Assembly: GCA_965223545.1 (NCBI GenBank)
Contig: OZ245006.1
Location: 7,296,001 to 7,360,000 of the forward strand
Origin: Planctomycetota bacterium
GTDB lineage: Bacteria; Planctomycetota; UBA1135; UBA2386
Length of the DNA: 64,000 bases
Direction of reading: 5' to 3'
Shown: piece by piece, positions 37,089 through 54,074 of the stretch
Numbering within the stretch: position 1 is the first letter of the stretch
Layout: the number at the start of each line of letters is the position of its first letter
Position numbers and translations under genes: made by a program
The notes under the pieces: generated by a model
What the model was told of the DNA's origin: nothing
Databases searched by the model: none
The model's input: only the letters and a program-made list of their open reading frames with translations

Positions 37089-39077
37089 CCCAACTTCCGC
37101 AGCTCGACGATTTTTGAGGCCAATTCGGAGCCTCGGCGCGGCGCCAGCCCGCTATCCACCGTCGCGGCGGCGCAGATCGGCCGTGTAGTGCCAACCCGCC
37201 CCGTTGATCGGTGTGGCAGGGAGCACGACAACTGTGTGCGAGGCGGCGGACGTGTACCTGCGACGCAAGACGGTCAGAAAGAACGGCAAGACCCACGAGT
37301 ACTGGCTCCTCGTTCGGTCGGTGCGGCACGGTCGTCGAGTGCGGCAGGAGGTGATCGCGCAGCTGGGCAAACTGGATGCGAAGGGGCGACGCCGGGCTCG
37401 TGCGCTGGCAGATCGGATGACCGGTCGCCGAATGCACCCGAGCCTGTTTGAGCCACCGGTGACAGACGACGACCCGGTCGAGTCGATTCGCTTGAAGGAG
37501 GTCAGCCTCGACCGGACACGCCGCTTCGGCGACGTTTTCGTCGGCCTGGCGCTGTGGCACGCACTGAAGTTCGACGACGCACTCTGGGAGCTCATGCCGC
37601 GGGGCCGTGAAGATGTCCCGTGGTCGACGATGGCGGCAGCGATGGTCATCTGTCGGTTGTGCATGCCCTCCAGCGAGCTGCACCTGGCTGAAGTCCTGTA
37701 CCGCCAGACCGCGCTTGACGACCTGCTTGGCCTGCCGGAAGGCAAGGTCAACGACGACCGGCTCTACCGGGCTCTCGACCAGATCCTGCCGCACAAAGAG
37801 GCGCTGGAGCAGCATCTCCGCGCACGGCTCGGCGAGTTGTTCGACGTTCAGTACGACTTGCTGCTCTACGACGTGACCTCGACCTACTTCGAAGGCCTCA
37901 TGCTGGGCAACCCCCAGGCGCAGCGTGGCTACAGCCGAGATCACCGGCCTGACTGCAAACAGGTTTGCATCGCTCTGGTCGTGACCAGACAGGGAATCCC
38001 TCTTGCGCACGAAGTGTTCGACGGCAATCGGACTGACGTCACGACGGTCCGCGAGATCGTCGAGACGATGGAGCGGCGATTCGGTGCTGCTGATCGCATC
38101 TGGGTCATGGACCGCGGAATGGTGAGCAAGCGCAACCTGAAATGGTTGAAGGAGGGAAGGCGACGGTACGTCATCGGCGCATCGCGTTCGGACCTGCGCC
38201 GCTTCGAACAGGAGATCGTCGACCGTCGAGACTGGCGCAGCATTCGTGAGGATGTCGAGGTCAAGCTCTGCCCGAGCGAGGACGGGGAGGAGACGTTCAT
38301 CCTGTGTCGCTCCCAGGCGCGCATCGAGAAGGACGCCGCAATTGTCGCGCGAGCAGCCGAACGCATTCGCGCGAGGCTTGCGTCGCTCGAACGCCGACTG
38401 GCGGCGTCGAAGAAGTCGATCGAACGGGACCGCGTCAATCAACAGATCGGACGCATCTTGGCCCAGAACTCGCGGGCCTCCACGTGCTTCTCGGTTTCGT
38501 TGATCGAAGCCCCGGATCGACCATCGGGGCTTGCCGTGGAGGCTTGTGAGAACACGAACTGGGTGGACCAGAGCGCCGGGTGCTACCTGCTCAGGTCCAA
38601 CGTGACGGGTTGGACAGATGAGGAGCTTTGGCGGACGTACATCCAGCTCACTGATGCTGAGTCCGCGTTTCGGATCCAGAAGTCCGAGCTGTCGATCCGC
38701 CCGGTGTGGCATCAACGCGAGGACCGGGTCAGGGCGCACATCCTCGTCTGCTTCCTCGCCTACGCCTTGTGGAAAACGCTCGAGCTCTGGCAGGAGAAGG
38801 CCGGACTCGGCAACAGCCCGGCCGCCATCCTCGAGGAGCTCCGTCAGGTCCAAAGCGCAGACGTGCTCCTGCCAACTACTGACGGCCGCGAACTCCGGGT
38901 CCGCTGCGTGGTCACCCCCAACGAGGCGCAGGCGCACCTGCTCGACCGGCTCGGCATCCAGCTACCCAGGAGGCTATCCGTCCCCGCGCCACTCCGTTCG
39001 ACCGCGATGTAGTGCCAACCAATCGACGTAAGTCGTTGCTTTTCAACGTGACGACCCGTCGAACTGCGGAAGTTGGG
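37089..39077 (+). mobile_element. IS1634-family insertion sequence
   Basis: IRs CCCAACTTCCGCAGCTCGACG / CGTCGAACTGCGGAAGTTGGG; CTAG on both sides (37085-37088, 39078-39081). Confidence 0.93.
37252..39012 (+). CDS. IS1634-family DDE transposase
   Basis: YDVTSTYFEG, GYSRDHRPDCKQ, VMDRGM, YIQLTDAESAFR, IRPVWHQ. Confidence 0.95.
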   Translation: MYLRRKTVRKNGKTHEYWLLVRSVRHGRRVRQEVIAQLGKLDAKGRRRARALADRMTGRRMHPSLFEPPVTDDDPVESIRLKEVSLDRTRRFGDVFVGLALWHALKFDDALWELMPRGREDVPWSTMAAAMVICRLCMPSSELHLAEVLYRQTALDDLLGLPEGKVNDDRLYRALDQILPHKEALEQHLRARLGELFDVQYDLLLYDVTSTYFEGLMLGNPQAQRGYSRDHRPDCKQVCIALVVTRQGIPLAHEVFDGNRTDVTTVREIVETMERRFGAADRIWVMDRGMVSKRNLKWLKEGRRRYVIGASRSDLRRFEQEIVDRRDWRSIREDVEVKLCPSEDGEETFILCRSQARIEKDAAIVARAAERIRARLASLERRLAASKKSIERDRVNQQIGRILAQNSRASTCFSVSLIEAPDRPSGLAVEACENTNWVDQSAGCYLLRSNVTGWTDEELWRTYIQLTDAESAFRIQKSELSIRPVWHQREDRVRAHILVCFLAYALWKTLELWQEKAGLGNSPAAILEELRQVQSADVLLPTTDGRELRVRCVVTPNEAQAHLLDRLGIQLPRRLSVPAPLRSTAM

Positions 39078-40580: not shown

Positions 40581-40942
40581 CCGGTCCAGCCGAGGTCGCC
40601 GAGCGATGTTGAATCGTCACTCTGCCTTGGCCGATCACGGCACCGCCTGTAGCTCGAGGCGGTGCGCGAGGGCTACGCCAAGGGGAAACCGGTGTTGTTC
40701 GAGCTTCGCCTCGACCTCGACTTCATCCTCCCGCGTGGTGCGATAGCGCCGGTGCTGGGGGGGCGCCGGGGTGGTCTGCGATCGCCGGCGAGTCCTTGCG
40801 ACGACCCACGAGCGGGCCGCAAGAAAGACGAAATTTGCGTCCGCGTCGACACGCCTGGGCACTCTGTTCCGGCGAAGAGCTGCCGCCCTATCAGCGACCG
40901 GGGCGGCTTGTAGCCTTGCCGACCTCGTTCTTTACTGTTTCG

Positions 40943-43621
40943 GTGGCGAACTTCCCGACAGAACCCTGCGATCCGGAGGATGCCGATCCGGCGAGCGCAC
41001 GCTGGGGAGACAACCTGTCCGGGCAGGATGCGGCTCTGCGGCGGTTGGCTGCCTCGCTCGTGCGCGATCAAGAGATCGGTGACGTGGTGCAAGAGACCTG
41101 GGTCTCGGCGATGGAGATGCGCGCCGAGGTTCGGCTTCCCACGGTGTGGTTGGCGAGTGTGCTCCGCTACAAGGCCGCGAGGATGTACCGGTCGGATCGG
41201 CGGCGGCGAGAGGAGCTGGCGGAATGGGCGCATCGCAAGCTCAACGAGGCGCAGGGCGATGACGCGGACGATCGCGAGGGGCAGCTCTCGGCGGCGGTCG
41301 AGCAGCTGCCCGAGCGCTATCGGACACCGCTGGTGCTGCGCCATATCGAGGGTTGGTCGATCGACGAGATCGCGCGTCATCTGGGGAGGCAGCGCAACAC
41401 GGTGCGGAGCCAGCTGGTTCGGGCGGTGAAAATCCTGCGGCGGAAGCTGGCACCGAAGGCGCGACGGCGGTGGGTCGCGCTGCCGGTGTGCAGTTTGGCG
41501 CGCAAGGGTCAGCGGCGGCGCGGGCCCGGGCCGGTGTCTGCGCAGCTGCTGGCTGCAGCGGGGATGGTCCTTGCGCTGGTGGGTGCTTGGACCATCCGGT
41601 GGACGGACAGTTTGCCTCCCGAGCCGCTCGCTCTCGTCGTCGACGGAGCCGAATGCCGACGCCTTGACGAGCCCGGCGTCGAAGCTGGTTTCAACACTGA
41701 GCGGCGCGAAGTCGCACCGGTCGCCACAGTCCGCGGCCGGGTGGTGCGCGATCGGCAGGGCGTCGCCAATGCGACGATTGTGTTCCGCGACGACGGCAGT
41801 GGCCGCAGTCGGGCGATCGCGATGACCGACGGTGCCGGGTACTTCGTCTCCGACAGCGCACCGACGCGGGGTTGGGTCCGCGCGACGTTGCCCTGGGGCG
41901 GTCACACCCGTTGGGTCGCAACGCAGCCCCACCCCGGTAGGACCGTCGAGATCCGCGTTCAGGCAGGTCTCGGCGAGCTGCGGGGCAGGGTGCTGGGTGC
42001 AGCTGGAGAACCGCTCGACGGAGCGCTGGTTGGGATCCACGTTCGGTCGCGCAGTGGTCCGCGGTTTACCGACGGCGAGTGGCACTTGCCGCCGCCGCCG
42101 GTGCGCACGACGACGGACTCTTTGGGCCGGTTCTCGCTCCAGCGTCTCAGCCCGCACCGAGACGTCCTGTTGGTCATGGCGCATGGATATGCGCCCAGAG
42201 TCGTGCCCATCGCCAAACCGTTGGCGGGCGACATCCGTCTACAACGCGCAACGCAGCTGAGCGGACGGGTCGTTTCCGTCGGTGGGCGCGCCGTGGCCGG
42301 GGCGAAGATCTCCGTCGGTCTGCCCTGGCCCGCGGGATCGCGGACCACGCGCTCGGGCGCCGACGGCTGCTTCGTGCTCGATGATCTGCCGGCTGGTCGC
42401 CACTTTCTGCGGGTGACGATGGCCGGTGGCGCGGGTCTCGCCACTACAGTTCGGAGTCCGAGCCTGGCGCCGGTTGTCCTCCGCGCAACGCGCGATCAGT
42501 CGATTGTCGGCGTTGCAACCGACCCCCAAGGACGCGGGCTCGATGGATGGGTGGCGACTCTGCTCTCTGAGGCCGAACTCGAGCAAGCCGGGCGCTTCGC
42601 GCCGCTGATTGTCGAGCAGCGGGCGCGGACGCACACCAGTGCAGATGGTTCGTTCGTGTTTGCCGGGTGCGTGCCGGGCACTTACGTCGTTACGCTGAGT
42701 CGGCCGGGAGCAGCCACACCCTCGGCCTGGCGCGCGAACGTCGCGCCGGGCTCGGTGCCCTGCGAAATCGTGGTTGGTGCCGAGCCCCGAGCGGGCGTCT
42801 CGGGTCGGCTTGCCGGGATCCAGCCGGGCGACCGCGCCGAGATCCGGGTTCCGTCGGTCGGATGGTCGCAGGACATTACCATCGACCCGGCACAGCGCTT
42901 CGAGGTGCACGACGTTCCACCGGGTACATGCGAGATCTGGGTCTGGCCGCCCGCGAGTCCGCCGCGCCGCCTCCTCCGGCGCACGTTGCTCGCGGGCGAG
43001 TCTGCGGAATTGGGTGCGCTCGTCCCGCCGCGTCCCGGTCAGTTGGAGATCCAGCTCGCTGCACCGCAAGCGGAGTTGCTGGCCAATGTCTCCGTCATCT
43101 TGCGGGGGGATTACGTCCGGTTGGCCCACACACCGCATGGCACGCGCGGCATCCGCTACGACGGCAACGGGCGGGTGACCGCCAACAACCTCGTGCCCGG
43201 GACCTACGAGCTGCGGTTGCGCTGCCCCGGTTTCGTCGACCTCTACCAGAGTATCGAGATCCAATCGGGTGCGACCACGACCCTGCGCCACGAGCTCGAA
43301 CGGGGTCGAGACGTCGCTGTGCGTGTGTCCGGTCTACGGTGGCTCCTGCCTCGCGAGCCCTACACTCTGGCGGTGGTCGATCGCCGCGGTTGCGAGTTGC
43401 TGGCCGGGCGCGAGTTCTACTACGACGGCGTGGATGCGTTCTCCCTCCGTGTCTGCGTGCCGGTCTCGGCAACTGCTGTCGTGGTCCGCTCGGCGACGCG
43501 GATGGCCCGCGGTCGCATCGACGAGGCGATGGGACAACTCGCAGAGGTCAATCTCGAGCTCGAGCCGATCTTGAAGGGCGGCGGTCAGGGCACGCACAGT
43601 CGGGTGCCCGCGGCGAACTGA
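40943..43621 (+). CDS. ECF sigma factor with transmembrane segment and carboxypeptidase-regulatory-like repeats
   Basis: Region 2 DVVQETWV, region 4 LPERYRTPLVLRHIEGWSIDEIA...TVRSQL, hydrophobic helix, repeated GRV...G...GA / TDxxGxF units; start uncertain. Confidence 0.85.
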   Translation: MANFPTEPCDPEDADPASARWGDNLSGQDAALRRLAASLVRDQEIGDVVQETWVSAMEMRAEVRLPTVWLASVLRYKAARMYRSDRRRREELAEWAHRKLNEAQGDDADDREGQLSAAVEQLPERYRTPLVLRHIEGWSIDEIARHLGRQRNTVRSQLVRAVKILRRKLAPKARRRWVALPVCSLARKGQRRRGPGPVSAQLLAAAGMVLALVGAWTIRWTDSLPPEPLALVVDGAECRRLDEPGVEAGFNTERREVAPVATVRGRVVRDRQGVANATIVFRDDGSGRSRAIAMTDGAGYFVSDSAPTRGWVRATLPWGGHTRWVATQPHPGRTVEIRVQAGLGELRGRVLGAAGEPLDGALVGIHVRSRSGPRFTDGEWHLPPPPVRTTTDSLGRFSLQRLSPHRDVLLVMAHGYAPRVVPIAKPLAGDIRLQRATQLSGRVVSVGGRAVAGAKISVGLPWPAGSRTTRSGADGCFVLDDLPAGRHFLRVTMAGGAGLATTVRSPSLAPVVLRATRDQSIVGVATDPQGRGLDGWVATLLSEAELEQAGRFAPLIVEQRARTHTSADGSFVFAGCVPGTYVVTLSRPGAATPSAWRANVAPGSVPCEIVVGAEPRAGVSGRLAGIQPGDRAEIRVPSVGWSQDITIDPAQRFEVHDVPPGTCEIWVWPPASPPRRLLRRTLLAGESAELGALVPPRPGQLEIQLAAPQAELLANVSVILRGDYVRLAHTPHGTRGIRYDGNGRVTANNLVPGTYELRLRCPGFVDLYQSIEIQSGATTTLRHELERGRDVAVRVSGLRWLLPREPYTLAVVDRRGCELLAGREFYYDGVDAFSLRVCVPVSATAVVVRSATRMARGRIDEAMGQLAEVNLELEPILKGGGQGTHSRVPAAN

Positions 43622-43660: not shown

Positions 43661-43668
43661 CCTGAGCG

Positions 43669-43764
43669 TCCGGCGCCTCGAATCGTCGAGCTGCGACAAC
43701 ATTTTCAAGGCAACGCCGCTGCCATGGCGACAACGCGGCCGCGCCGGAGGCTCGGAGAGACAGT
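43669..43764 (+). repeat. 96-bp intergenic repeat, copy 1
   Basis: 87/96 identical, ungapped, to the reverse complement of 59297-59392. Confidence 0.92.
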
Positions 43765-43908: not shown

Positions 43909-44598
43909 ATGCCCTCATCGATCGCGTCCTTGTTCTTGGCCGTCCTTGGCGTCTGCAGTAGCGCCCTTCTCCCAAACTCCTTCGATGGCGGGCGGTGTAC
44001 CGCAACGCGGTCGGCCGAAGTCTCGGCGACCAGGTTGGCCGAGAGCCAACGAGGGTGGGCGCGGCAAACGCAACCCGCCCTGGCCAACATCGAGCCCTTG
44101 GTCGGCCGAAGCAGGGCGCACGAAAGGGAGTCCCGACCGCCACGTGGAGTCTCCACGTTGATTCCGCAAGCAACCGTTTGTCCGACGTCGCCCACCACCT
44201 GCCCGCTCGCGGAGACCCTGTGCCCGTTTGCGAACACGGTGTGTCCAGTCCAAACCACGGTCTGCCATCCGACTCAGTGTCCGGTGGTCACCACGGTATG
44301 CCCTGAGAGCGCGACGATTTGCGAGTTCACCGTGTGTCCGCAGTCGTCGACCAGTTGCCCGACCGTGCCCACGGTGTGCCCGATCGAGGCGACGGTCTGC
44401 GCGCCGACAACTTGCAACTTCGTCATCACGTATTGCCCGCGCAGCTACACCAGATGTCCGAAATGCACTGAAGTGGCCAGTTCCGTGCCGGTGCGCGAGC
44501 TCGCGCCTTCCGATCGACGATCGCAAATCGCAACCGTCGGCGACGCGGTGGCGGCGCTCGATGGTCTCGTGCCGGCTACATCCGACCCAACGGAATAG
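43909..44598 (+). CDS. Secreted Cys/Thr-rich T-x-C-P repeat protein A
   Basis: GGAG RBS; hydrophobic signal; 15 T-x-C units at 44173-44466. Confidence 0.85.
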   Translation: MPSSIASLFLAVLGVCSSALLPNSFDGGRCTATRSAEVSATRLAESQRGWARQTQPALANIEPLVGRSRAHERESRPPRGVSTLIPQATVCPTSPTTCPLAETLCPFANTVCPVQTTVCHPTQCPVVTTVCPESATICEFTVCPQSSTSCPTVPTVCPIEATVCAPTTCNFVITYCPRSYTRCPKCTEVASSVPVRELAPSDRRSQIATVGDAVAALDGLVPATSDPTE

Positions 44599-44618
44599 TG
44601 ACCACGAGGTCCCATCCC

Positions 44619-45371
44619 ATGAAATCTCTTTGGATCATGCCGCTTGCGGCCGCACTCTTGCTGCCCGCCGCCGATCCGAGCACGGGCCCGGACCTCGACG
44701 GCTCAGAGATCGTCTGTGGTTGTCCGCTCGCGCAACAGCTGCTCACGACCGCGACGCAGCGTTGGCTCGTCGAACGGCGGACGGAGTTGGCGTCGCCAGC
44801 CGAGGTTGGTGAACGAGTCGATCTCTCGGCGCAGTCCTCCGATTCGCACGAGACGTTCCAGGCCATGCCGGCGACCCAGGGGCCGTCGACCCAATGTCCG
44901 GTAGAGACTCAATGCCCCATAAGCTCGACGTTTTGTCCAACGCGAGTGACCTACTGCCCGCAGGCCGAGACCGTTTGTCAAGAAACCCACTGTGCAACGG
45001 TCACCACGCGCTGCCCAACGGTCCCGACGGTGTGTGAGCACACGGTGTGTCCGGTCTCGCCGACGGTTTGTCCTCAGCTGGCAACGGCATGCCCCTACGT
45101 GAGCACGAAGTGCCCTATCTCGACAACCTACTGCCCGACCCTTGCGACGCAATGCCCGCAGAGGACGACGTATTGCCCCGCGGAGGAGACACGGTGTCCG
45201 GTGATCCAGTCGCTGTGTCAATGCGAACTGGCGTCGCCGTCGGTCGACGGATCATCATCGCTCGCCTCTGACCTGTCGAAGTCCGTCGAGCGTTGGCCAC
45301 CGAGACACCCGGAATGGCGGCTTTCGGATCCAACGGAAGCCATCGAGACGATGTTCTATGTCGGTCGCTAA
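44619..45371 (+). CDS. Secreted Cys/Thr-rich T-x-C-P repeat protein B
   Basis: GAGG RBS; MKSLWIMPLAAALLLPA signal; 16 T-x-C units plus SLCQC at 44889-45224. Confidence 0.88.
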   Translation: MKSLWIMPLAAALLLPAADPSTGPDLDGSEIVCGCPLAQQLLTTATQRWLVERRTELASPAEVGERVDLSAQSSDSHETFQAMPATQGPSTQCPVETQCPISSTFCPTRVTYCPQAETVCQETHCATVTTRCPTVPTVCEHTVCPVSPTVCPQLATACPYVSTKCPISTTYCPTLATQCPQRTTYCPAEETRCPVIQSLCQCELASPSVDGSSSLASDLSKSVERWPPRHPEWRLSDPTEAIETMFYVGR

Positions 45372-45490
45372 AGACCGCTCGAACGGCTGCACGAGGGTGC
45401 GGGTCGAGCGGTCCTCGATCGACCCGCGGCGCGCGACGCGACTCGGCTGTGCGGCTGCTCGAATCGTGCCATAACCGCGCCCGCAGAGAG

Positions 45491-47734
45491 ATGATGCTCG
45501 CCACGGCACGCGGACTTTCTCGCGCATGCTCGTGCCTGCTGACGCTGTCGTCCGCCGGCCTGTTCCACGGTTCGGTCGCCAACGCGCAGGCGCCGATTGG
45601 TCCAACGTCTTGGCCGATCCTCGGCAGCCAAACCCAGCGTTGGTCCATGGATCTGCCCGTGGCGATCCACCAGCTTCGTGGAGCCGTCCGCTTCGTCGAC
45701 GGCGGCGAGCGCGCATCGAGGAGCGAGGCTTTACGGCTGCATGTGCTTGGTTCGGCCAGTGCGCTCTACGAGGTGGTCCACTCGGCAGGCTTTCTCAGCG
45801 AGGGGTTCACCGAGTTCTATGGAATCGAGGCAGGTAGGCGGCCTTGCTACCTGCGCCGAGGGGATGAGACCAGCGGTTTGCTTTGGCTGGATGTCGCCGC
45901 GCACGAAGTGATCGAGTGGCCGACACCGCCGCTCCTGCCGTGTCGGCTGCGGCGCTTGGAGTTGCGGGGGCCCTCGGAGTTGGCGCTGAGCGGGGCAACC
46001 GTCCTACTCGAGTACGACGGCTTCGCAATTCCGCGACCATGGCTCGGCGAGCCCATCGTCCTGGAATCACCCCTCGATCAGCCAGCGACCGTGCGCGTGC
46101 GGTTGCCCGCCACCGGCGGTGGGACGGTGGCTCGATTCGGGACCACCGCAAGCGTGCTGCCGGGGCCTGAGCCCATTGTGATCGCGGTCGACGGCGGCGG
46201 CCGCTCGATCCGCCTCGGGTCGAGCCCGACGCAAAGCGCCTCGACGCCAGCCTCGATTCGTTATCGCCTGTCGATCGAACCCGTGGCGAGCGCCCTCGAA
46301 CGCATGGTCGGTGCACCCGTCCGCCTGTTGGCGGCGGTGGACCCTCTGCAGTTTCGCTCACCACCGCGTTCGCACACTTGGGTCGAGGGCGGGTCGACGA
46401 CCGATCTACGCATCGACGGCCTTGCCGCGGACAAGGCGTGGCTCGGGGTGGGGACCGACCACCGCTGCCGCGCGATGCTCTGGCGCCAGCAGCCGAAGAC
46501 GGTCACCGAGGTGCACTTGGAACCCGCGTCCATCGCCAAGGGCGCCGCCGAGCTGATGGTCTTGCCGCCGTGGATGCGCACCATCGATTTGGACTCACCC
46601 GTGGGCCCTGGTCCACGCCGTGTGATCTCTGGGGCGCCGAGTCAGCTGTGGACCGGTGGGCCTGGGTTTCGCGACGCGCGCCGCCTGCTCGGGTGGCGGA
46701 ACGGTGATGGCTTGGAGGTCGAGCTGCCCGTCGCGATCCCGGTTCTGCCGCACCCACAACTGGGTCCGGACGACGAGCTGACCGTGCGCGTGCGGGCCTT
46801 TGGCGTGGCGGTCCACCACGGCGAGCGCTTCTATTGGCGGCAGCGTGCCCCCTTCGATGGCACTTGGCCCGAGATGCCCGACGGGCTTCTCGACGCTGTG
46901 GTGCGGCGGCGGGGACGCGGCGTCAAGGTCCTGCGCGGTGTGCTGGTCGATGGTGTCCTGCTCAAGCCGTTCGCCCGCTGGCGCGACGTGGGCGCGGTGC
47001 AACCCGAGACCGAGGGCGTGACGGTCGTGGGCCCCGACGGCCGACCAGTCGTCGGCGCAACCTTGCTCGATGCCAATGGCGAGGCCGTCGGGACGACGGA
47101 CGAGGACGGGCGGTGCTCGCTATCAGCGGCGCTCCAGGGCCGCGAGCCCGGGGTCGTTGCGGTCCTGCCGCCATGGGGTGGGTTTGCGCAGCGGCACACC
47201 GTCGACGTGAACGGATCGACGCTTCATCTAGAACGCCCGGAGCCAAACCACACCTGGGAGAACCTGCAGCGCGTTCTTGGAGTCGACCTCGAGTCGGTGG
47301 GCATCCACAGTGTCAGGCTGTGGCGGATTGGCTCGGGCGAGAGTGCGAACCTGTCGATCCAGCACCCCGCCACGCTTTCCCAAGGCGAGCCCGTCGAGTT
47401 TGCGGGCAACGCGCCCGGGGTGCGGACGTGGGGTTGGTTCCGCGCGCCCTCGGCCACCGTTGGCCCGACGGTTGGCGCCGGCCGTGCGGAACTCGTCCTC
47501 GCCAACCGCTCCGCGTCGCGGTTTGTGCACGTTTCGTTGGCGCGCTGTGAGCTGCGCCTGGAGATCGGAGCGCGCCGTCAGCAGCGGTTGTCGATCAGAG
47601 CGCCGGCATCGATCTCGGTGGTCTCGGCCGTGGAGAAGAGCACGAGTTCAGAAGAGCTACTGTTGGACGAGGTCGTCCGCGCGGACCTGGCCGACAAGGA
47701 TGTTCTGGTCATTACCTTCGGCGAGAGTTGGTAG
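45491..47734 (+). CDS. Secreted hypothetical protein (beta-rich, one carboxypeptidase-regulatory-like motif)
   Basis: Signal ending ANA-QA; GPDGRPVVGA...TTDEDGR motif; TAG overlaps next GTG. Confidence 0.7.
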   Translation: MMLATARGLSRACSCLLTLSSAGLFHGSVANAQAPIGPTSWPILGSQTQRWSMDLPVAIHQLRGAVRFVDGGERASRSEALRLHVLGSASALYEVVHSAGFLSEGFTEFYGIEAGRRPCYLRRGDETSGLLWLDVAAHEVIEWPTPPLLPCRLRRLELRGPSELALSGATVLLEYDGFAIPRPWLGEPIVLESPLDQPATVRVRLPATGGGTVARFGTTASVLPGPEPIVIAVDGGGRSIRLGSSPTQSASTPASIRYRLSIEPVASALERMVGAPVRLLAAVDPLQFRSPPRSHTWVEGGSTTDLRIDGLAADKAWLGVGTDHRCRAMLWRQQPKTVTEVHLEPASIAKGAAELMVLPPWMRTIDLDSPVGPGPRRVISGAPSQLWTGGPGFRDARRLLGWRNGDGLEVELPVAIPVLPHPQLGPDDELTVRVRAFGVAVHHGERFYWRQRAPFDGTWPEMPDGLLDAVVRRRGRGVKVLRGVLVDGVLLKPFARWRDVGAVQPETEGVTVVGPDGRPVVGATLLDANGEAVGTTDEDGRCSLSAALQGREPGVVAVLPPWGGFAQRHTVDVNGSTLHLERPEPNHTWENLQRVLGVDLESVGIHSVRLWRIGSGESANLSIQHPATLSQGEPVEFAGNAPGVRTWGWFRAPSATVGPTVGAGRAELVLANRSASRFVHVSLARCELRLEIGARRQQRLSIRAPASISVVSAVEKSTSSEELLLDEVVRADLADKDVLVITFGESW

Positions 47735-50100
47735 TGTCAGCGAGGCACGAGCGGAGGGCTGGAGTTACCGCCCCCGGCCGCACTCCATCGCGGACCGCGC
47801 TCGTGGCGACGAGCGCGTTCGGCCTGCTGCTGAGCGGCGCACACGGTTGGTACCCGGCGATGCTGCAGCCGTTGCTGCTGCTGGTTGCGGGCGGCATCTC
47901 CGTTGCCAGCATCGCGGGCTCCGATCGTCGCTCGCAGCTGCTCGGATCCGTGCTGCTTATCCTGGGCGTGATCGGCAGACAACTGCTGTCCACTGATCTC
48001 GTGGCGGTGCTGGGATTGGCCGGAGCGCATGCCTTGGTGCGGCAACCGACCATTTGTCGGGGGCTGTTGGGCCTGATGATCCTGTGTCTCGTGCTGACGA
48101 CGCGCGTCGGCTACTACGCAGAGGTCGGGCTGGCGCAGTGGATCTCGATGGTCGCGGCGATCGGCTCTGGCGCCGACGTCTCGCTGGGACCGGTCTACAG
48201 CGGTGCTCGTATGGCCGTCGTGTTGATCACGATCGTGGCAATTGCAGCTCCGACTGCGCGCGGGAGGCAGGTCGGACGCATCCTGCTGCTGCTCGCAGCC
48301 GCGGTCGCCGGAGCCGTGCTGGTCTCGTGGGCGGCGAGCGTCTTGCCGCCGTTCGGATCGAGTCCGTCGGCGAGTCTACGCAGCTCGGTGGTCGCCGCGC
48401 AGCTGCCATGGGTCCATTCGGTCTGCGGTCTCGCGATCGTCACCGCGCTTGCAGCGCGGGCACGCCCGCGCCCAAACCCCCACCCGTCCCCAAGGTTCGT
48501 GGCCGCGTTGCCAGTTCTCGCTGCCGGTGCTCTGCTTCTCAGTCTTCCGCCGGTGGGCCTGCCTGCTGCGCGTCATGTCACGTTCTATCGGCCTGGGTTC
48601 TCCAACTGGGACCTGCCGCGGGCGGACCTGTCCGGCGCTGGCCCCTACAGCACCGGAATGCTCGGCTCTCTGCCGATGTTTGCGCGCGCCCTGGGCTTGC
48701 GGAGCGATCTCGTCGATGACATCGACGCAGAGGTTCTGGCGACGACACAGATCCTGGTCCTCGTCAATCAGAACGAGCCGATGACGGGCGGTTCCGATGT
48801 CGCGATCGAGGCGTGGGTCCGCGCCGGGGGGCACTTGGTGGTCGTGACGGACCACACCTTTCTCCATCCGAGTGAGGATGGCCATCGCATCCACGGCAAC
48901 GACCCGATCGCGGCCACCGGGATCCGGATCGAGAACAACTCGGCGGATCACCTGACCGCGGCCAACTTTGACGGCACCGTGGCTTTTGGATTCGCCCAAC
49001 CGCTCGACTGCGTGCCCGGCAACCCGCACATGCCGATCATCGGCGCAGGTCTTGCGCTTCGTTGGCCGGCGACGCCGCTCGTGATCGGGCGTTACGGCTA
49101 TGAAGATCTCGGCCGGATTCCCACCGCCGTCTCCGACGACGCGATTGGCGACCTGACTTGGAACCCCGGCGAGCACCTCGGCGGAGTCGTTCTGATCGCA
49201 GCTCAGCAGCTCGGCCACGGCAGGGTCAGTGTCGTTGGCGACACGACTGGCTTCCACAACATCGCCCGCACCAGCACCTGGCGCGTGGTCGGTGACTTTC
49301 TGTTGGGGCGAGCGCACGGTGGTCCTGGGCCGGCCGCAGTCGCCGCGGCGGTGCTGCTGTTGCTTGGGATCGTGATTTGGCGGCGCCGGGGACCGACCCA
49401 GAGGACGGCGATGCTCATGGCCACTGCGCTCACTGGGGTTGCGGTGCTGTCCAACGCGAGCAACGCCCCGGTGGTCGCAACCGATCCTGCGCAGCCGCTG
49501 TTGGTGCTTGACACCGCGGTGTCACCTTCGGGACCGCGCGGCGATTGGAGCCCGGAAGGACACTTGACGGTGATCTCGACCGCGCTCCGCTCGGGGTTCC
49601 TGCCGCTGTTTACGAACACCAAAGACGGCATTCCCGACGGAACTCGATGCATCATCCTGTCGCAGCCCAGGGCCGATCCCGGTCGCGAGTGGGCGGCCAA
49701 CCTGCTGCGCTGGGTCGAAGCTGGAGGACATCTGCTGATTGCGGCCGGCTACGAGGAGCAAGCGGCGATGGCGGGTCTGTTTTCCAGGATTCACTGCCGC
49801 GTCGATCCCCTGGTTGTCGCACCGAACATCGTGAATGTCCGTGATCGCGTTGGCGAGGTCGTCGACGTCCGATTGCCCGAGTCCTGGAACCTGTCGTTGG
49901 GTGAAGGCGGTTGGTCGCGCGTTCTGTTCGACGCCGAGACGACCACCATGGCGCAACGCCAACTCGGCGAGGGCCTCGTCACCGTCGTGACGGATGCGAC
50001 GTTCTTTCAGAACCGCTACCAGGAGTCAGAGGAGTTGATCGTCGAGGGCAACCTGCGCTTCACCATGTCGCTGCTGACGAACGGAGTGGAGCTGCGGTGA
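47734..50100 (+). CDS. Multi-pass membrane protein with two DUF4350/GldG-like soluble domains
   Basis: Many N-terminal TM helices; LATTQILVLVN...AWVRAGGHLVVVTDHT; GHGRVSVVGDT; second domain WVEAGGHLLI...GEGLVTVVTD. Confidence 0.8.
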   Translation: MSARHERRAGVTAPGRTPSRTALVATSAFGLLLSGAHGWYPAMLQPLLLLVAGGISVASIAGSDRRSQLLGSVLLILGVIGRQLLSTDLVAVLGLAGAHALVRQPTICRGLLGLMILCLVLTTRVGYYAEVGLAQWISMVAAIGSGADVSLGPVYSGARMAVVLITIVAIAAPTARGRQVGRILLLLAAAVAGAVLVSWAASVLPPFGSSPSASLRSSVVAAQLPWVHSVCGLAIVTALAARARPRPNPHPSPRFVAALPVLAAGALLLSLPPVGLPAARHVTFYRPGFSNWDLPRADLSGAGPYSTGMLGSLPMFARALGLRSDLVDDIDAEVLATTQILVLVNQNEPMTGGSDVAIEAWVRAGGHLVVVTDHTFLHPSEDGHRIHGNDPIAATGIRIENNSADHLTAANFDGTVAFGFAQPLDCVPGNPHMPIIGAGLALRWPATPLVIGRYGYEDLGRIPTAVSDDAIGDLTWNPGEHLGGVVLIAAQQLGHGRVSVVGDTTGFHNIARTSTWRVVGDFLLGRAHGGPGPAAVAAAVLLLLGIVIWRRRGPTQRTAMLMATALTGVAVLSNASNAPVVATDPAQPLLVLDTAVSPSGPRGDWSPEGHLTVISTALRSGFLPLFTNTKDGIPDGTRCIILSQPRADPGREWAANLLRWVEAGGHLLIAAGYEEQAAMAGLFSRIHCRVDPLVVAPNIVNVRDRVGEVVDVRLPESWNLSLGEGGWSRVLFDAETTTMAQRQLGEGLVTVVTDATFFQNRYQESEELIVEGNLRFTMSLLTNGVELR

Positions 50101-52598
50101 TCGGTCGCGCGCTCGTCCTCGGACAGCTTCTCGGCATCGTGTTGGTGGCGTCGGCCTTCCGGCGCTTCTCCGATCTCGGAGACACAGTGCCAGCGATGGC
50201 ACTGTGGGTCGCCATGGCGGTGGGCTTGCTGCTGTTCGCCGCGTGTGCCCGCTCGATCGACGATGGCTTGCCGCCGGCAAAGGCTGGTGCTTGGCCGATC
50301 GCACTCGGGGCCGCGCTGGCCCTGAGCATTCCCTCACCGACGGTTGTCTGCCTGTGCGTCGGAGCGGGCGCGGTTTTCGTCGGTTCGGTGAGCAGGACCG
50401 ACTGGCTGGTCCGAACGGGTCTTCAGGCGCTGCTCTGCCTGCTCGCGGTCACCGCGGCGATACACCTGATCGACCTGTTCGCGCTGCAACGCCCCGAGCT
50501 ACCGTGGGTGGCTCGGTGGGTGGCGGGGATCGGTGAGTTGCTCGGCTGGGAGTCCGCTGCAGGAGTGGACCGGGTATTGATCGAGGGACCGCGCAGCGAG
50601 TTGGCCTTTCGCGCCTCGCCGACGACGCTGGGGTTATCGGTACACGTGGCCGTCGTCGTGACGTGGGGTGCTCTCCGGTGGGCCGGAGGGGTCTCGGCCC
50701 CGGGGTGGTTGTCTCTCGCGCTGTACCTGCCGCTCGTGTTGATTACGCGGTTGGCACTCGTCGTCGCCGCGGGCTTGGTCGGCGAGCACGTGGCGGACTA
50801 CGATGTGCCAGACTTCGATCTGTCGCCCATGTTGGACTGGCGCTACGGCCTCGTGATCGACGCGGCTGCGGCGACGGGTGTCGGCTGGCTCCTGTTCCGC
50901 ACGACTGAGTCGACGCCAGTAGCCAGATCCGCGTCATCCCTTGTACTGCTCGCGGCGTTGTGCGTTGGGGTGTCGTGGTCGACCGATCGCATTCTCGATG
51001 CGTCTCCCGACCCCAAGGCGGGACGCATCGCCATTGATGAACGACATTCGCGGTGGGAGTCGTCGGATCTTCCATTGGGACGCGCCTACTACGGGCAGGA
51101 GTCCGGCTACAACTTTCGCGGTTTGGCGGATTGGCTCGAGAGCCGCTTTGGCCAGATCCGCCGGATCTACGATCCTCTGACGGAGGATGTGCTTGGGCAG
51201 GTCGATGTCCTGATCATCAAGACCCCTACGGAGCACTACACCACGGACGAACTCGCGACGCTCGACGCGTTCGTACAACGCGGCGGGGGCCTGGTCCTCA
51301 TCGGCGACCACACCAACGTCTACGGCACCAGCGAGGTACTGAACTCCATAGCGCACCGATACGGTGTGGACTTCCAGTACGACTGCTGCTTCGACCACCG
51401 CAATCGGTTCGAGTACTGCTACTGGACCGAACCGCAGGTCCGAGGCCACCCCGTGGTTCGCGGCGTCGAGAGCCTGTTGTTCGAGGTCGGCTGCACTCTC
51501 GACCTCAACTCGCTGCGCGCCCGGCCGTTGATCGTGGGGCGCGCTCTCAAGAGTCAGGAGATCGACTACAACGTCGAGAACTTCTACCCCAGCCCGAGGG
51601 ACTCGAGTGACCAGGCATGCGGCCAGTTCGCTCTCGTCGTTGCTTGTGTGCGGGGCACCGGTCGTGTGGTAATGATTGCCGATAGCACGCTGTTCTCGAC
51701 GTTCTCGGTTTTCATGCCAGGGCGCAGGGAACTGGTCGAAGGCGCAGTCGAGTACGTCAATCACCGCGACGTTGGGGAAGGCGTGCGATCGCCGTTGTAC
51801 CGTCTGAGTTGGGTCATCACGCTGTTGCTCGGTTTGCTAGTGCGGCGCCGGGGGTTAGTGACCCTCGTTGCGGTCGGTGCGATGGCATGGGGCGCTTCGC
51901 AGGCGAGCTGTGCGGCCGCCGATCGCTGGCTGTATCCGGGCCCCGACCAGCCCCCGCACGAGCAGGTCGCCCGCAATGTGACCTTCGTTTGGGAAGACGG
52001 TTGGGTCGATTGGGGGGCTCACGGATTCCGCACAGATTTTCAACGGGCCTACGCCTTGTTCTTTCAGTTCGTGGTGCGCAGTGGCGGATTCCCCCGGCTG
52101 CTGCGCGATCGCCAGGCCGCACTCGACAGCGGCGGGCCGGTGCTGTGGTTCAATCCCGGTCCGGTGGCGCCAATTGTCGCCGAGCAAACAGCGGACTTCG
52201 TGCGCGGCGGAGGGACGCTGTTCCTGCTGGAGTCCGCGCCCAACGCGGCGGTCACGGCGATTGCGCGCGAGGCGGGAATCGAGATTTCCGCCGATCGCAA
52301 GCGCACCGGCCCACTCGACTCCGTCTACGGAGTGGTGCCGATTCCGGCAGGCACCGCCGGCTTTCGCTCGGTCACCGGCGGCGAGCCAATCCTCGTCGGC
52401 GAGGGCGATGGATCGCCTGTCCGAGTCCTGACCCGTCACGTCGTCGGCGACGGGCAACTGGTCCTTGTGACGTGCGGGGAGCTGTTCGCGGATGCCAACT
52501 ATGGGGGGCGCTACGGCGTGCTGCCAGAACCGGGACTCAGGCGCCTGTACGAGGTGCAGTTCGCAATGCTGGCTGCGGCCATCGACGGAGCCAAGTAA
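50097..52598 (+). CDS. Multi-pass membrane protein (exosortase-like topology) with two DUF4350/GldG-like domains
   Basis: GTGA overlap with previous gene; IAIDERHSRWE, VDVLIIKTPT...FVQRGGGLVLIGDHTN, GTGRVVMIADS; second domain FVRGGGTLFLL. Confidence 0.82.
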   Translation: MIGRALVLGQLLGIVLVASAFRRFSDLGDTVPAMALWVAMAVGLLLFAACARSIDDGLPPAKAGAWPIALGAALALSIPSPTVVCLCVGAGAVFVGSVSRTDWLVRTGLQALLCLLAVTAAIHLIDLFALQRPELPWVARWVAGIGELLGWESAAGVDRVLIEGPRSELAFRASPTTLGLSVHVAVVVTWGALRWAGGVSAPGWLSLALYLPLVLITRLALVVAAGLVGEHVADYDVPDFDLSPMLDWRYGLVIDAAAATGVGWLLFRTTESTPVARSASSLVLLAALCVGVSWSTDRILDASPDPKAGRIAIDERHSRWESSDLPLGRAYYGQESGYNFRGLADWLESRFGQIRRIYDPLTEDVLGQVDVLIIKTPTEHYTTDELATLDAFVQRGGGLVLIGDHTNVYGTSEVLNSIAHRYGVDFQYDCCFDHRNRFEYCYWTEPQVRGHPVVRGVESLLFEVGCTLDLNSLRARPLIVGRALKSQEIDYNVENFYPSPRDSSDQACGQFALVVACVRGTGRVVMIADSTLFSTFSVFMPGRRELVEGAVEYVNHRDVGEGVRSPLYRLSWVITLLLGLLVRRRGLVTLVAVGAMAWGASQASCAAADRWLYPGPDQPPHEQVARNVTFVWEDGWVDWGAHGFRTDFQRAYALFFQFVVRSGGFPRLLRDRQAALDSGGPVLWFNPGPVAPIVAEQTADFVRGGGTLFLLESAPNAAVTAIAREAGIEISADRKRTGPLDSVYGVVPIPAGTAGFRSVTGGEPILVGEGDGSPVRVLTRHVVGDGQLVLVTCGELFADANYGGRYGVLPEPGLRRLYEVQFAMLAAAIDGAK

Positions 52599-52828: not shown

Positions 52829-54074
52829 AAAACTGCAGCCCTTCCGTGGGCCTGGCTAGCTGAGAGACGCTGACCGAGACGTAACCGGAGCCCTCTTTCG
52901 AGTCACTGGAAGTGACGCAGGGCCAACTGCGCAACGGTGCCCTTTTGGTCCCCCCCGCGTTGTGTCTCGGAGGTCGCCGATGTTCGTTCCCCCGCGTTGC
53001 CCCAACTCAGCTTGCCCGCACAACCGCAGCCCGCGGCCCGGCTTCTTCGTACGCCGTGGCTACTACTACCCCAAGTGCCGCGCCCAAGGCGTGCCGCGCT
53101 TCCGCTGCCGCCATTGCCGGCAGGGCTTCTCGCGGCAGACGTTCCGCATGGATTACCTCGACCACAAGCCCGACCGCAACGCCTGGATCGTCATGTTGCT
53201 CTGCTCTGGCCTGGGCCTGCGACAGACCGCACGCCTGGCCGGGCTCACGGCCCGCAACACCGAGATGAAGTTCCGCAAGATCGGTCGTCACGTCCGCCGC
53301 CTGAACAACAACTTACGGGGCGACCTCCCGGTCGGCTCGAGCTTGCAGTTCGACGAACTCGAGAGCTACGAGGGCCGCCGCAACACGCGGCCCCTGACGC
53401 TGCCTGTCCTGATCGAGCGCGGGAGCCGCTTCATCCTCGCAGCGCGGTCGGCCCCGATCCGCCCCGGTGGCCCCAAACCGGCTGCGCGCCGGCGAGCGAT
53501 AGAGGCCGACGCGCGGCGGTTTGGCCGGCGGCCGTCGCGGTCGCGCGCGGCAACGCGCAATGCGCTGTGCCGGGGCGCGCGCGCTTGCACTCGGTTGACC
53601 ACCGTGTTGCTCGAAACGGACGAGAAAACGACCTACTCAGGACTCGCGAGGGGCATTTTCGGCGCGCGGCTCGAGCACCGGCGAACACCAAGCACGCTGC
53701 CGCGCGAGACCTGGAACCCGCTGTTCGCGATCAACCATACCGAGGCAATGGCGCGCGACCTCAACGGTCGTCTGCGGCGCGAGTCCTGGCTGGTCAGCAA
53801 GAAGCGCTGTTTCCTCAACCTGCAGCTGCACATCTACATCGCGTACCGCAACTTCACGCGACCGCGCTTCAACTTCGACCGAGACACGCCGGCGATGCTG
53901 GTTGGCTGGCTGCCCCAGAAGTTGCGGCTGAACCAGGTGCTATCCTGGCGCCAGGACTGGGGCACGCGCAGCGGCCATCCGCTGGATCGAAACGCAAAAC
54001 CGATCGAGAACTTCCTGAAGAGCTCTGCCTGAGTTTCTTGCGGCCGTGCCGGACCACGGAAGGGCTGCAGTTCG
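52829..54074 (+). mobile_element. IS1-like insertion sequence
   Basis: 19-bp perfect IR core AACTGCAGCCCTTCCGTGG at both ends; flanking DR GGCTGCTTC(A) at 52820 and 54075. Confidence 0.88.
52980..54032 (+). CDS. Zinc-ribbon/HTH/DDE-type transposase (IS1-like)
   Basis: CPNSAC...CRHC, HTH LRQTARLAG, QFDELES, ETDEK, INHTEAMARD..GRLRR; GGAGG RBS. Confidence 0.85.
   Translation: MFVPPRCPNSACPHNRSPRPGFFVRRGYYYPKCRAQGVPRFRCRHCRQGFSRQTFRMDYLDHKPDRNAWIVMLLCSGLGLRQTARLAGLTARNTEMKFRKIGRHVRRLNNNLRGDLPVGSSLQFDELESYEGRRNTRPLTLPVLIERGSRFILAARSAPIRPGGPKPAARRRAIEADARRFGRRPSRSRAATRNALCRGARACTRLTTVLLETDEKTTYSGLARGIFGARLEHRRTPSTLPRETWNPLFAINHTEAMARDLNGRLRRESWLVSKKRCFLNLQLHIYIAYRNFTRPRFNFDRDTPAMLVGWLPQKLRLNQVLSWRQDWGTRSGHPLDRNAKPIENFLKSSA

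Follow-up and report, generated by a model that had tools for sequence, protein, structure and literature searches.

What does a pair of related membrane proteins do to the Cys-rich exported proteins encoded beside them? The question is raised by a locus in the window, the whole 64,000-nucleotide stretch of planctomycete DNA that was analysed, where five co-oriented open reading frames lie on the + strand at 43909-44598 (substrate 1, 229 aa), 44619-45371 (substrate 2, 250 aa), 45491-47734 (accessory protein, 747 aa), 47734-50100 (subunit A, 788 aa) and 50097-52598 (subunit B, 833 aa). An earlier note on this DNA had described five co-oriented genes, some with overlapping stop and start codons; the coordinates bear this out, the genes are judged to be real and both overlaps (TAGTG at 47732, GTGA at 50097) are present in the sequence. 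GC3 of these genes, 0.73-0.80, is similar to that of neighbouring genes, and in each of two public runs of one sample, possibly the source, a single 9.1-kb contig matches 43725-52856 or 43734-52856 with zero differences. Promoter and terminator scans of the locus gave matches at chance level only. An ECF sigma fusion encoded upstream was left out of the system, because the genome has a great many genes of this kind.

Putative substrates and accessory genes

The first two genes encode small T-x-C-P repeat proteins, as had been claimed, with 11 and 13 such motifs; in a six-frame translation of the host genome (8.1 Mb, 93,822 segments) no others have at least three. Substrate 1 has an N-terminal hydrophobic signal at residues 3-21, a weak leader-like helix at residues 36-51 (44014-44061, +) and a T-x-C-P array of 16 Cys from Cys91 to Cys186, with a 'headless' hydroxyl (Ser82/Thr83) 9/8 residues ahead of the first Cys and a spare Cys (TRCPKC) at the end. 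Substrate 2 has a signal-like N-terminus that falls under the hydropathy cut-off used, a leader-like helix at residues 35-50 (44721-44768, +) that gives an ungapped alignment with the family motif S-P-L-F-x-x-x-L, and 18 Cys from Cys93 to Cys202, with Thr86 seven residues ahead of the first Cys and again a spare terminal Cys (SLCQC). Each putative leader or docking helix is the best of 69 windows; the score for substrate 1 is reached by 57% of null genes, so it is not significant alone, and that for substrate 2 by 8%. Neither substrate has a C-terminal hydrophobic helix of the sorting-signal kind, and the ESM Atlas gave no usable match for substrate 2.

The third gene, described at first as encoding a secreted protein of about 750 aa, does encode a secreted or membrane-anchored protein, with no family above cut-off. 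Homologues occur only in two close relatives, directly upstream of A in both, and, being present in 3 of 301 genomes, the protein is a clade-specific extra.

The absence of a RiPP maturase, also claimed, holds for the five genes, in which family searches found none, and is qualified by a LanL-like gene 13 kb past the A/B pair, outside the window. LanB-, LanC-, LanM-, LanKC- and LanL-type enzymes are absent both from the five genes and from the recurrent neighbours across relatives' loci, as are radical SAM/SPASM maturases. The LanL-like gene was rejected as the maturase: it is of a soluble, kinase type, accompanies A/B in this genome only, and is missing from relatives' loci and from the genomes G328 and G383, neither of which has a LanC match. 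No obvious precursor was found in its surroundings, so that a role for it in the system has some small probability.

Two outward-facing GIFT proteins

Subunits A and B are paralogues, as had been proposed, with P of 100% and E of 1.3e-56 in profile comparison, a relation invisible to tblastn. Both consist of nine transmembrane helices, a first GIFT domain, a transmembrane hairpin and a second GIFT domain, and the positive-inside rule places both GIFT domains of each on the outside (the start of A is unsure, the database protein having 765 aa against 788 for the open reading frame). The claim of two DUF4350 stretches in each protein was confirmed, with Pfam DUF4350 scores of 53.7 and 49.7 bits against a cut-off of 30.4; PF09822 is over its cut-off for B, and the GldG model TIGR03521 reaches 14.6 bits against a cut-off of 389.85. 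The GIFT fold matches IFT52 (Z 21.0, rmsd 2.4 over 207 aligned residues), OST48 (Z 18.5), site-1 protease (Z 18.3) and homoserine O-acetyltransferase (Z 10.4), and the ESM Atlas returned only unnamed DUF4350 clusters for B. For the membrane domains, which were not modelled as separate units, no structural match was reported. Comparison by family, profile and structure assigned A and B to no known complex, and in particular to none with unrelated substrates, an outcome for which the earlier note had proposed to look.

The (G/T)DHT motif is present at T372-D-H-T375 of A and G403-D-H-T406 of B, and each protein has it in its first GIFT domain only, not in both domains as had been described. In B this domain holds a conserved pocket (E315, H317, W320, E321, Y338, K375, D404, H405, T406, D429, C466 and D529-S-T531), in which Asp404, His405 and Cys466, candidates for a triad like the Cys-His-Glu/Asp one of class I glutamine amidotransferases and Cys hydrolases, are conserved and several conserved residues come after core strand ends. 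The first GIFT domain of A has D373-H374-T375, D458 and D503, with Ala438 at the position of B Cys466, and its second GIFT domain has D593, R619, D754, E764 and N773. Cys466 (51492-51494, +) is Cys in 91%, Ser in 5% and Asp in 2% of 146 relatives, and some B proteins with Ser or Asp here have normal substrates; it is a candidate nucleophile or metal ligand, and B is probably the catalytic subunit. Neither A nor B has a second conserved Cys or a CxxC.

The earlier description of the pair as exosortase-like stands for the fold, and not for activity, the domain being catalytically dead. The membrane domain shares with exosortases and archaeosortases (PF09721) a layout of helix, beta-strands, helix and Arg-helix, and the Arg of the N-x-x-R helix aligns with Arg218 of B, conserved in 97% of 146 relatives and not seen in A. 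However, the catalytic Cys is absent, the C-S-G position reading T177-L-G179 in B and Y155-S-G157 in A (F, A or Y across the A family). Within residues 1-300 of B no His reaches 70% conservation, and the exosortase profile alignment stops short of the catalytic His position. A co-fold of A(279-781), B(306-559) and B(624-830) with a 34-residue leader, from which both exosortase-like domains were excluded, scored 0.01 and is counted neither for nor against an association.

Coupling of the pair to repeat and leader genes

Relatives of B, found by alignment-based search (a single-sequence search for B loci gave no matches), number 356 in species-level genomes and 1,018 representatives at E < 1e-30. 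The two genes are coupled: A accompanies B in 63 of the 67 loci with enough upstream DNA, across many phyla and the archaea. A gene with a Cys/Thr-repeat run or a leader adjoins the pair in 63 of 99 loci, as against eight comparable Cys runs in the whole 8.1-Mb host genome, two of which are the open reading frames of this locus. This is the adjacency that the earlier note had asked to have checked, and it supports the idea of a substrate with dedicated heteromeric membrane machinery. The other 36 loci have no partner gene, many of them being on short contigs. Enzymes that might activate the hydroxyl, such as a kinase or a glutamyl donor, do not recur near the 99 loci, nor does any glycosyltransferase or donor-supply gene, ABC transporter or MoxR partner, an ABC ATPase-like neighbour occurring in 5 of 99 only.

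The leader family motif, S-P-L-F-x-x-x-L-x-x-A, has a leave-one-out score of at least 15 in 31 of 34 cases and is weak at this locus. In some systems the leader helix may lie on a separate membrane-anchored TPR adaptor rather than on the substrate, and the substrate tails of relatives are host-specific (T9SS-like, PstS, TolB-like propeller or S-layer-like). The genome G328 has at least ten T-x-C open reading frames at seven sites remote from its single adaptor-A-B operon, an arrangement suggesting that one pair may serve many scattered substrates. T-x-C-P genes occur with no match to B in three genomes, G349 and G547, each 91% complete, and G666, at 77%, the first two of which also have no detected A, and archaeal partners have two Cys only, in or near membrane helices.

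A pairwise Ser/Thr-Cys code

When neighbouring Cys arrays were collected with no filter for Ser or Thr, 73 of 79 had Ser/Thr at a fixed offset from at least 70% of their Cys; the next class at a fixed offset was Pro (15 of 79), and among 16 control arrays of the host genome three had fixed-offset Ser/Thr, two of them the genes of this locus. Periods range from 4 to 13-15, and T-x-C-P is a single variant of a broader code that combines Ser/Thr with Cys. These counts come from a strict repeat detector, which replaced a looser one that fired in 114 of 405 control bins (GC-rich shadow frames); closely related genomes are among those counted and a protein may contribute more than one array, and P values are therefore overstated.

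The ends of the arrays differ. Among 60 arrays whose internal units are about 93% occupied, 46 have a Ser/Thr belonging to the first Cys and 14 one belonging to the last. An extra Ser/Thr stands one period ahead of the first Cys in 27 arrays, or in 47 if a shift of one residue is allowed; at the mirror position the figures are 5 and 17. In an independent set of 16 dispersed genes, a headless Ser/Thr was found at -8 to -10 in 16 of 16 and the last Cys had its own Thr in 3 of 16. Ser/Thr frequency upstream of the first Cys peaks at -9, the commonest internal distance from Thr to the next Cys, at 0.63 against 0.02-0.12 at most other positions. Across 2,323 seven-residue units the paired position is Thr in 90.6%, Ser in 2.2% and Val in 0.6%, against a Val background of 7.7%. 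The number of Cys is even in 42 of 76 arrays and in 7 of 16 of the independent set, so that parity is random. Taken together, the headless Ser/Thr, the spare terminal Cys, the exclusion of Val and the random parity indicate that each Ser/Thr pairs with the Cys of the next unit. There are exceptions: L143 has the reversed end pattern, some arrays have no spare Cys, and L145 has Asn, not Ser/Thr, at the fixed offset.

Subunit B co-varies with its substrates. All 20 T-x-C-P loci fall within one starred clade of the B tree, and Ser-type substrates, from several phyla, lie on one side of its deepest split (support 94). Residue 408, in the motif G403-D-H-T-N-V408 (51303-51320, +), is Val or Ile in all 39 systems of the Thr type and Leu in all 14 of the Ser type, and is Val in L143, a Thr-type system on the Ser side; the tree is a quick one, on which the Val/Leu switch is mostly one phylogenetic event and L143 the one test case.

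What the complex may do

The reading preferred here, with a probability of about 0.45, is that A and B form an extracytoplasmic complex, unrelated to Lan enzymes, that would make thioethers between Ser/Thr and Cys. A and B would contact one another in the membrane, as the coupling of their genes suggests, with their GIFT domains towards the periplasm or cell exterior. Sec-exported substrates would be recruited by the short helix, on the substrate or on the TPR adaptor, and the hydroxyl-bearing carbon of each Thr/Ser would be linked to the Cys thiol of the next repeat with loss of water. The product would be a ladder of overlapping (methyl)lanthionine-type rings, up to about 190 per protein, spaced i to i+9 at this locus and i+5 to about i+10 in other systems, and may act as a rigid, redox-insensitive surface rod. 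The catalytic site is likely to be the Asp/His/Cys pocket of the first GIFT domain of B, possibly metal-binding, with A as a Cys-less partner. In favour of this reading, the GIFT domains are on the side to which substrates are exported. The hydroxyl would have to be activated with no ATP, for which cystathionine beta-synthase offers a small-molecule precedent in the condensation of Ser with a thiol (PMC7474069); against this, protein lanthionine synthesis as described in PMC2843593 activates Ser/Thr first. The further proposal that the pair is a new class of lanthionine synthetase, extracytoplasmic and ATP-free, making tens to nearly two hundred overlapping rings by way of a TPR adaptor or a transferable docking helix, with one residue as the switch between Thr and Ser, and with the first catalytic role for GIFT, across many phyla and archaea, is more tentative and on the doubtful side. 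To our knowledge, no GIFT domain has demonstrated catalysis.

Sequence alone would look the same whether Thr and Cys are covalently linked or, in a stacked repeat, are in contact through a hydrogen bond or a bridging metal. It is possible that the repeats form a solenoid whose Thr hydroxyls and Cys thiolates are stacked or bind metal together, as a metal sponge or mineral template, and that A/B is a metal-loading or folding chaperone whose Asp/His/Cys pocket passes on the metal. Up to 194 Cys per protein, the tolerance of odd Cys numbers and the metal-type ligands of the B pocket, where Cys466 alternates with Ser and Asp, would suit such a role, and a Thr ladder one rung off the Cys ladder would likewise yield the end asymmetry. 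However, this is unlikely for three reasons: first, the wide range of periods includes turn-closed units (T-x-x-P-G-C, T-M-N-P-M-D-x-x-C) that resemble single macrocycles. Second, Val is excluded despite being beta-branched. Third, a B residue that tracks Thr versus Ser is needless for a metal chaperone.

Less likely again is another pairwise covalent reaction or group transfer, in which a lipid-derived acyl, phosphoglycerol or sugar group would pass via Cys to Thr/Ser and the dead exosortase domain would bind the lipid donor. GIFT domains are found in oligosaccharyltransferase, with sugar binding proposed in PMC7226087, OST48 is among the fold matches, the fold family includes Cys-nucleophile acyltransferases such as homoserine O-acetyltransferase, the exosortase Arg is retained and a hydroxyl is required at the paired position. 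Nevertheless, no donor-supply gene or glycosyltransferase recurs, no sequon around Thr is shared across families (Pro being fixed in so few arrays), and the spare terminal Cys is unexplained by simple decoration.

That the Cys simply pair as disulfides, with A/B a dedicated thiol oxidase or isomerase acting through Cys466, is improbable. The clients are secreted and Cys-rich, the conserved Cys of B faces outward and both window arrays have even Cys numbers, but the random parity across the family, the missing second Cys and the obligatory, asymmetrically placed Ser/Thr are unexplained; insect antifreeze-type beta-helix repeats differ in having all Cys paired. Least probable is that A/B acts as a transpeptidase of the exosortase kind, cleaving the repeat proteins and anchoring them, given that, despite a weak alignment of the B membrane domain to exosortases (E 2e-4, P 46%) and the retained Arg, the Cys and His of the Cys-Arg-His triad (bioRxiv 2023.06.07.544157) are missing, the window substrates have no C-terminal membrane helix, relatives bring their own tails and the recognition motif is N-terminal. 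Among the fates proposed in the earlier note, namely processing, anchoring or assembly, processing in the sense of modification is favoured and anchoring disfavoured, because there is no exosortase Cys and sorting tails on the substrates are either host-specific or absent.

Relation to known systems

The thioether reading brings the system close to the lanthipeptides (classes I-V), as defined in PMC2843593 (LanB/C, LanM, LanKC, LanL; the promiscuous ProcM/SyncM). In both, the precursors match Ser/Thr to Cys at positions suited to closing rings that overlap and have a conserved segment resembling a leader, and one enzyme can have many scattered precursors, up to 79 for SyncM (PMC9872173). In contrast to Lan enzymes, A/B has no sequence or fold relation to them, faces outward from the membrane and has no kinase or ATPase partner; its substrates are Sec-exported, reach 1,650 aa and 190 Cys and are often fused to folded domains, the leader may belong to a TPR protein instead, and the thioether is a predicted one. 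With other GIFT/DUF4350 proteins (IFT52, OST48/Wbp1, site-1 protease, GldG, archaeal arCOG01314) the pair shares the class-I-glutamine-amidotransferase-like fold, and it differs in that two GIFT domains sit on a scaffold of 11 helices, the paralogues form a seemingly obligate pair and the polar pocket is strongly conserved; the archaeal DUF4350 family has a single C-terminal helix (PMC5898192). Bufferins also combine a Sec-signal RiPP precursor, Cys chemistry and a periplasmic product, but, as described in PMC11626156, soluble DUF692/DUF2063 enzymes make thiooxazoles from four Cys with no Ser/Thr code. Periodic Cys are shared with radical-SAM RiPPs (CefA/CefB, CXXX-repeat), and in one case a Ser-type partner reaches 24.9 bits against CefA, under the cut-off of 30; in contrast to those, the loci have no recurrent radical SAM enzyme and the partners have signal peptides. 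The literature searched yielded no description of the A/B-substrate system, in agreement with the view that no described pathway has this architecture.

Under any of the rival explanations too, this is a widespread, undescribed envelope system. If the thioether reading is true, A and B would represent a mechanistically independent route to lanthionine and would extend RiPP-style chemistry to large exported proteins. It would also give a function to the fold common to IFT52, OST48 and site-1 protease, whose role is so far proposed only, and an enzyme able to close 5-10-residue rings along tandem arrays of exported proteins would be of use for peptide stapling.

The locus and its relatives

The five open reading frames, gene overlaps and repeats claimed by the earlier note are all present in the sequence: two secreted T-x-C-P repeat proteins (substrate 1, 43909-44598, 229 aa, 11 motifs; substrate 2, 44619-45371, 250 aa, 13 motifs), a 747-aa protein (45491-47734) and the membrane proteins A (47734-50100, 788 aa) and B (50097-52598, 833 aa), all on the forward strand. 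This stretch is identical, with zero differences, in public contigs of one sample, and its nearest named relatives are Planctomycetota. Among the 93,822 six-frame segments of the 8.1-Mb host genome none beyond substrates 1 and 2 holds three or more T-x-C-P motifs, and homologues of the 747-aa protein occur in two of 300 other genomes, each immediately upstream of A. An ECF sigma factor fused to carboxypeptidase-regulatory-like domains (40796-43621), co-oriented upstream of substrate 1 and one of many such genes in the host, is a possible regulator of the locus. Between it and substrate 1 is a dispersed repeat of ~100 bp (43662-43764; ~100 genome matches); an IS1634 transposase (37204-39012) lies upstream of the locus, an IS1-like element (52962-54032; 11 matches to its end) directly follows B, and GC falls to 0.59-0.65 across about 22-40 kb of the window. 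The locus may lie at the edge of an island.

Species-level genomes, searched by pattern, gave 356 confirmed relatives of B; among the best 80 loci are members of Planctomycetota, Chloroflexota, Bacillota, Acidobacteriota, Desulfobacterota, Latescibacterota, Eisenbacteria and Thermoplasmatota. A was found in 63 of the 67 B loci with sufficient upstream DNA, 13 being left out as too short. The distribution of B is patchy (22/301 genomes of the class; at least 26/401 of the phylum). A Cys array or leader gene accompanies 63 of 99 loci; the other 36, many on short contigs, show none. All four class genomes matching the T-x-C-P core carry B, as do 13 of 18 in the phylum sample; two of the remaining five are weak matches only, and three (G349, G547 and G666; 91, 91 and 77% complete) have genuine arrays with no B detected, A being likewise not found in the first two. 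Kinase, radical SAM, glycosyltransferase and protease genes were not recurrent among the 869 neighbour ORFs of the relatives' loci, and an ABC ATPase-like ORF was near the pair in five loci. One subclade of pairs (L138, L139, L141, L145, L153) adjoins a very long YD/Rhs-like gene, mostly without a nearby Cys array.

A Ser/Thr-Cys code in the arrays

Cys periods in the arrays of the partner proteins range from 4 up to 13-15. With no filter for Ser/Thr, 73 of 79 arrays had one of the two residues at a constant distance from 70% or more of their Cys (Pro, the next, in 15/79), against 3/16 in a host-genome control, two of these being substrates 1 and 2. Substrate 1 has Thr at -2 for 15 of 16 array Cys, and in substrate 2 Thr accompanies 16 of 18 and Ser one. 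Val occupies the paired position at 0.6% against a background of 7.7%. Some of the arrays counted come from kin, and the counts are not independent.

The array ends were compared in 60 arrays whose units have their own Ser/Thr at -1 or -2; these come from the 77 left once truncated, gapped or duplicate runs had been dropped. In 46 of the 60 the first Cys has its own Ser/Thr, in only 14 the last, and in 27 an extra Ser/Thr precedes the first Cys by one period, against five in the mirror position. Upstream of the arrays the Ser/Thr frequency peaks at -9 (0.63, 41 arrays), which is also the Thr-to-next-Cys distance found most often inside them (1,720 cases). The extra Ser/Thr is present, at -8 to -10, in every one of 16 dispersed genes fetched later (four of them from genomes in which no pair was detected); 13 of the 16 have a spare terminal Cys lacking its own Ser/Thr. 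Substrate 1 fits the code fully, with Ser82 at -9 and Cys186 as the spare; in substrate 2 the extra residue is Thr86 at -7 and the spare is Cys202. The exceptions are L143, with array ends reversed, L145, with Asn at the fixed offset (Asn-x-x-Cys), and the archaeal partners, which have two Cys near membrane helices.

A signal peptide opens the partner proteins; after it there is usually S-P-L-F-x-x-x-L-x-x-A, a putative docking helix (leave-one-out score at least 15 in 31/34). Substrates 1 and 2 carry divergent versions, picked by eye, each the best of 69 windows and neither significant alone. The repeat proteins of at least 12 Planctomycetota-type loci are without the motif, which is carried instead by a separately encoded, membrane-anchored TPR protein just upstream of A; in G328 a single TPR-A-B operon occurs along with 10 or more T-x-C genes at seven other sites. 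The gene after B at L047, L053, L055, L060, L068 and L076 encodes an archaeal partner of ~250 aa that carries the S-P-L-F leader. It has no more than two Cys; both lie at a C-terminal membrane segment, with a Thr a few residues before each, and the protein is read as a candidate minimal or membrane-embedded substrate.

The membrane pair

A and B each score DUF4350 twice and are paralogous (profile comparison, P 100%, E 1.3e-56), as had been claimed; the one-helix archaeal DUF4350 family of PMC5898192 is a different family. Confident AlphaFold2 models (A, pLDDT 91.7, pTM 0.92; B, 93.5, 0.94) give both the same layout, in which nine helices precede a globular domain and a helical hairpin leads on to a second one. 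Because loop Lys/Arg density alternates in both families, the N-terminus is predicted inside and both globular domains outside. The likeness to exosortases held in part: B's membrane part aligns weakly (E 2e-4, P 46%) with a self-built profile of 15 sequences (from 15 of 24 fetched loci) and keeps the Arg, but the catalytic Cys is missing, as it is in A. The exosortase triad is Cys, Arg and His (bioRxiv 2023.06.07.544157).

Structure comparison shows B's first globular domain to have a GIFT fold (Z 21.0 to IFT52, 18.5 to OST48, 18.3 to site-1 protease). Across 146 relatives W320, Y338, H405, R523, D529, S530 and T531 are invariant and E315, E321, K375, D429 and C466 at least 90% conserved; A has Ala in place of C466. 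Several of these residues follow the C-terminal ends of core strands in the model, the usual active face of such a fold.

A quick tree of 97 B domains places all 20 T-x-C-P loci in one starred clade. Its deepest split (support 94, unstarred) has the Ser-type partners, from several phyla, on one side only, and genomes of the host's own family on both. At B residue 408, three positions past His405, Thr-type systems have Val/Ile (39/39) and Ser-type systems Leu (14/14). L143, which is Thr-type yet on a long branch of the Ser side, has Val, and L023, with a mixed Ser/Thr array, has Ile. This co-variation amounts to one tree split and one test case, yet it points to B's D-H-T loop as the place of the substrate hydroxyl residue.

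Proposed chemistry

It is suggested, at somewhat under even odds (about 0.45), that A/B forms a thioether between each Ser/Thr and one Cys, which would be the simplest chemistry that pairs the two and spares neither. Lanthipeptides have such a Ser/Thr-Cys thioether, and their enzymes activate the hydroxyl first (PMC2843593); in contrast, the A/B system encodes no activating enzyme and its site faces outward. Since ATP-free direct exchange of hydroxyl for thiol is known for free amino acids (PMC7474069), a metal- or Cys-assisted displacement without ATP may be possible.

A LanL-like lanthionine synthetase of the host (C1:7361910-7364912; L193:4007-6913; 526.9 bits, cut-off 650) lies just past the window end, with no obvious precursor adjoining. 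At C1:1929363-1933590 (L195) the host has a radical SAM/SPASM gene whose best match, PapB-like at 211.6 bits, falls short of the cut-off. It stands 2 kb upstream of a Cys/Asn/Thr/Ser repeat ORF (227 aa, 21 Cys) that lacks the A/B-family leader, and the locus is probably that of a separate thioether RiPP. A small, secreted-looking Pro/Cys-rich ORF (C1:5809783-5810022) is unlinked to the A/B system.

Among the alternatives, a metal or folding role for the pair is unlikely, though the strongest of them, and some other transfer reaction is a little less likely still. Disulfide catalysis appears improbable; the Cys number is even in 42 of 76 arrays. Sortase-type anchoring can very nearly be discounted: given that partner tails differ by host (T9SS-like, PstS, TolB-like propeller and others that, by eye, we take to be S-layer-like, CHRD-like or dockerin-like), anchoring is supplied elsewhere, not by A/B. 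A small remainder of the probability goes to no named reading. Thr-Cys arrays are fused to a PstS-like phosphate-binding domain at L050:3256-6045, L078:403-3141 and L079:3906-6110.

No description of the A/B system was found in the literature on GIFT/GldG, the Pfam families, exosortases with Cys-rich leaders, Planctomycete lanthipeptides and Phycisphaerae Cys/Thr repeats, of which subscription papers or supplements may hold a mention. If the thioether reading holds, it would add to the lanthipeptide-like linkages one made by an outward-facing membrane pair.
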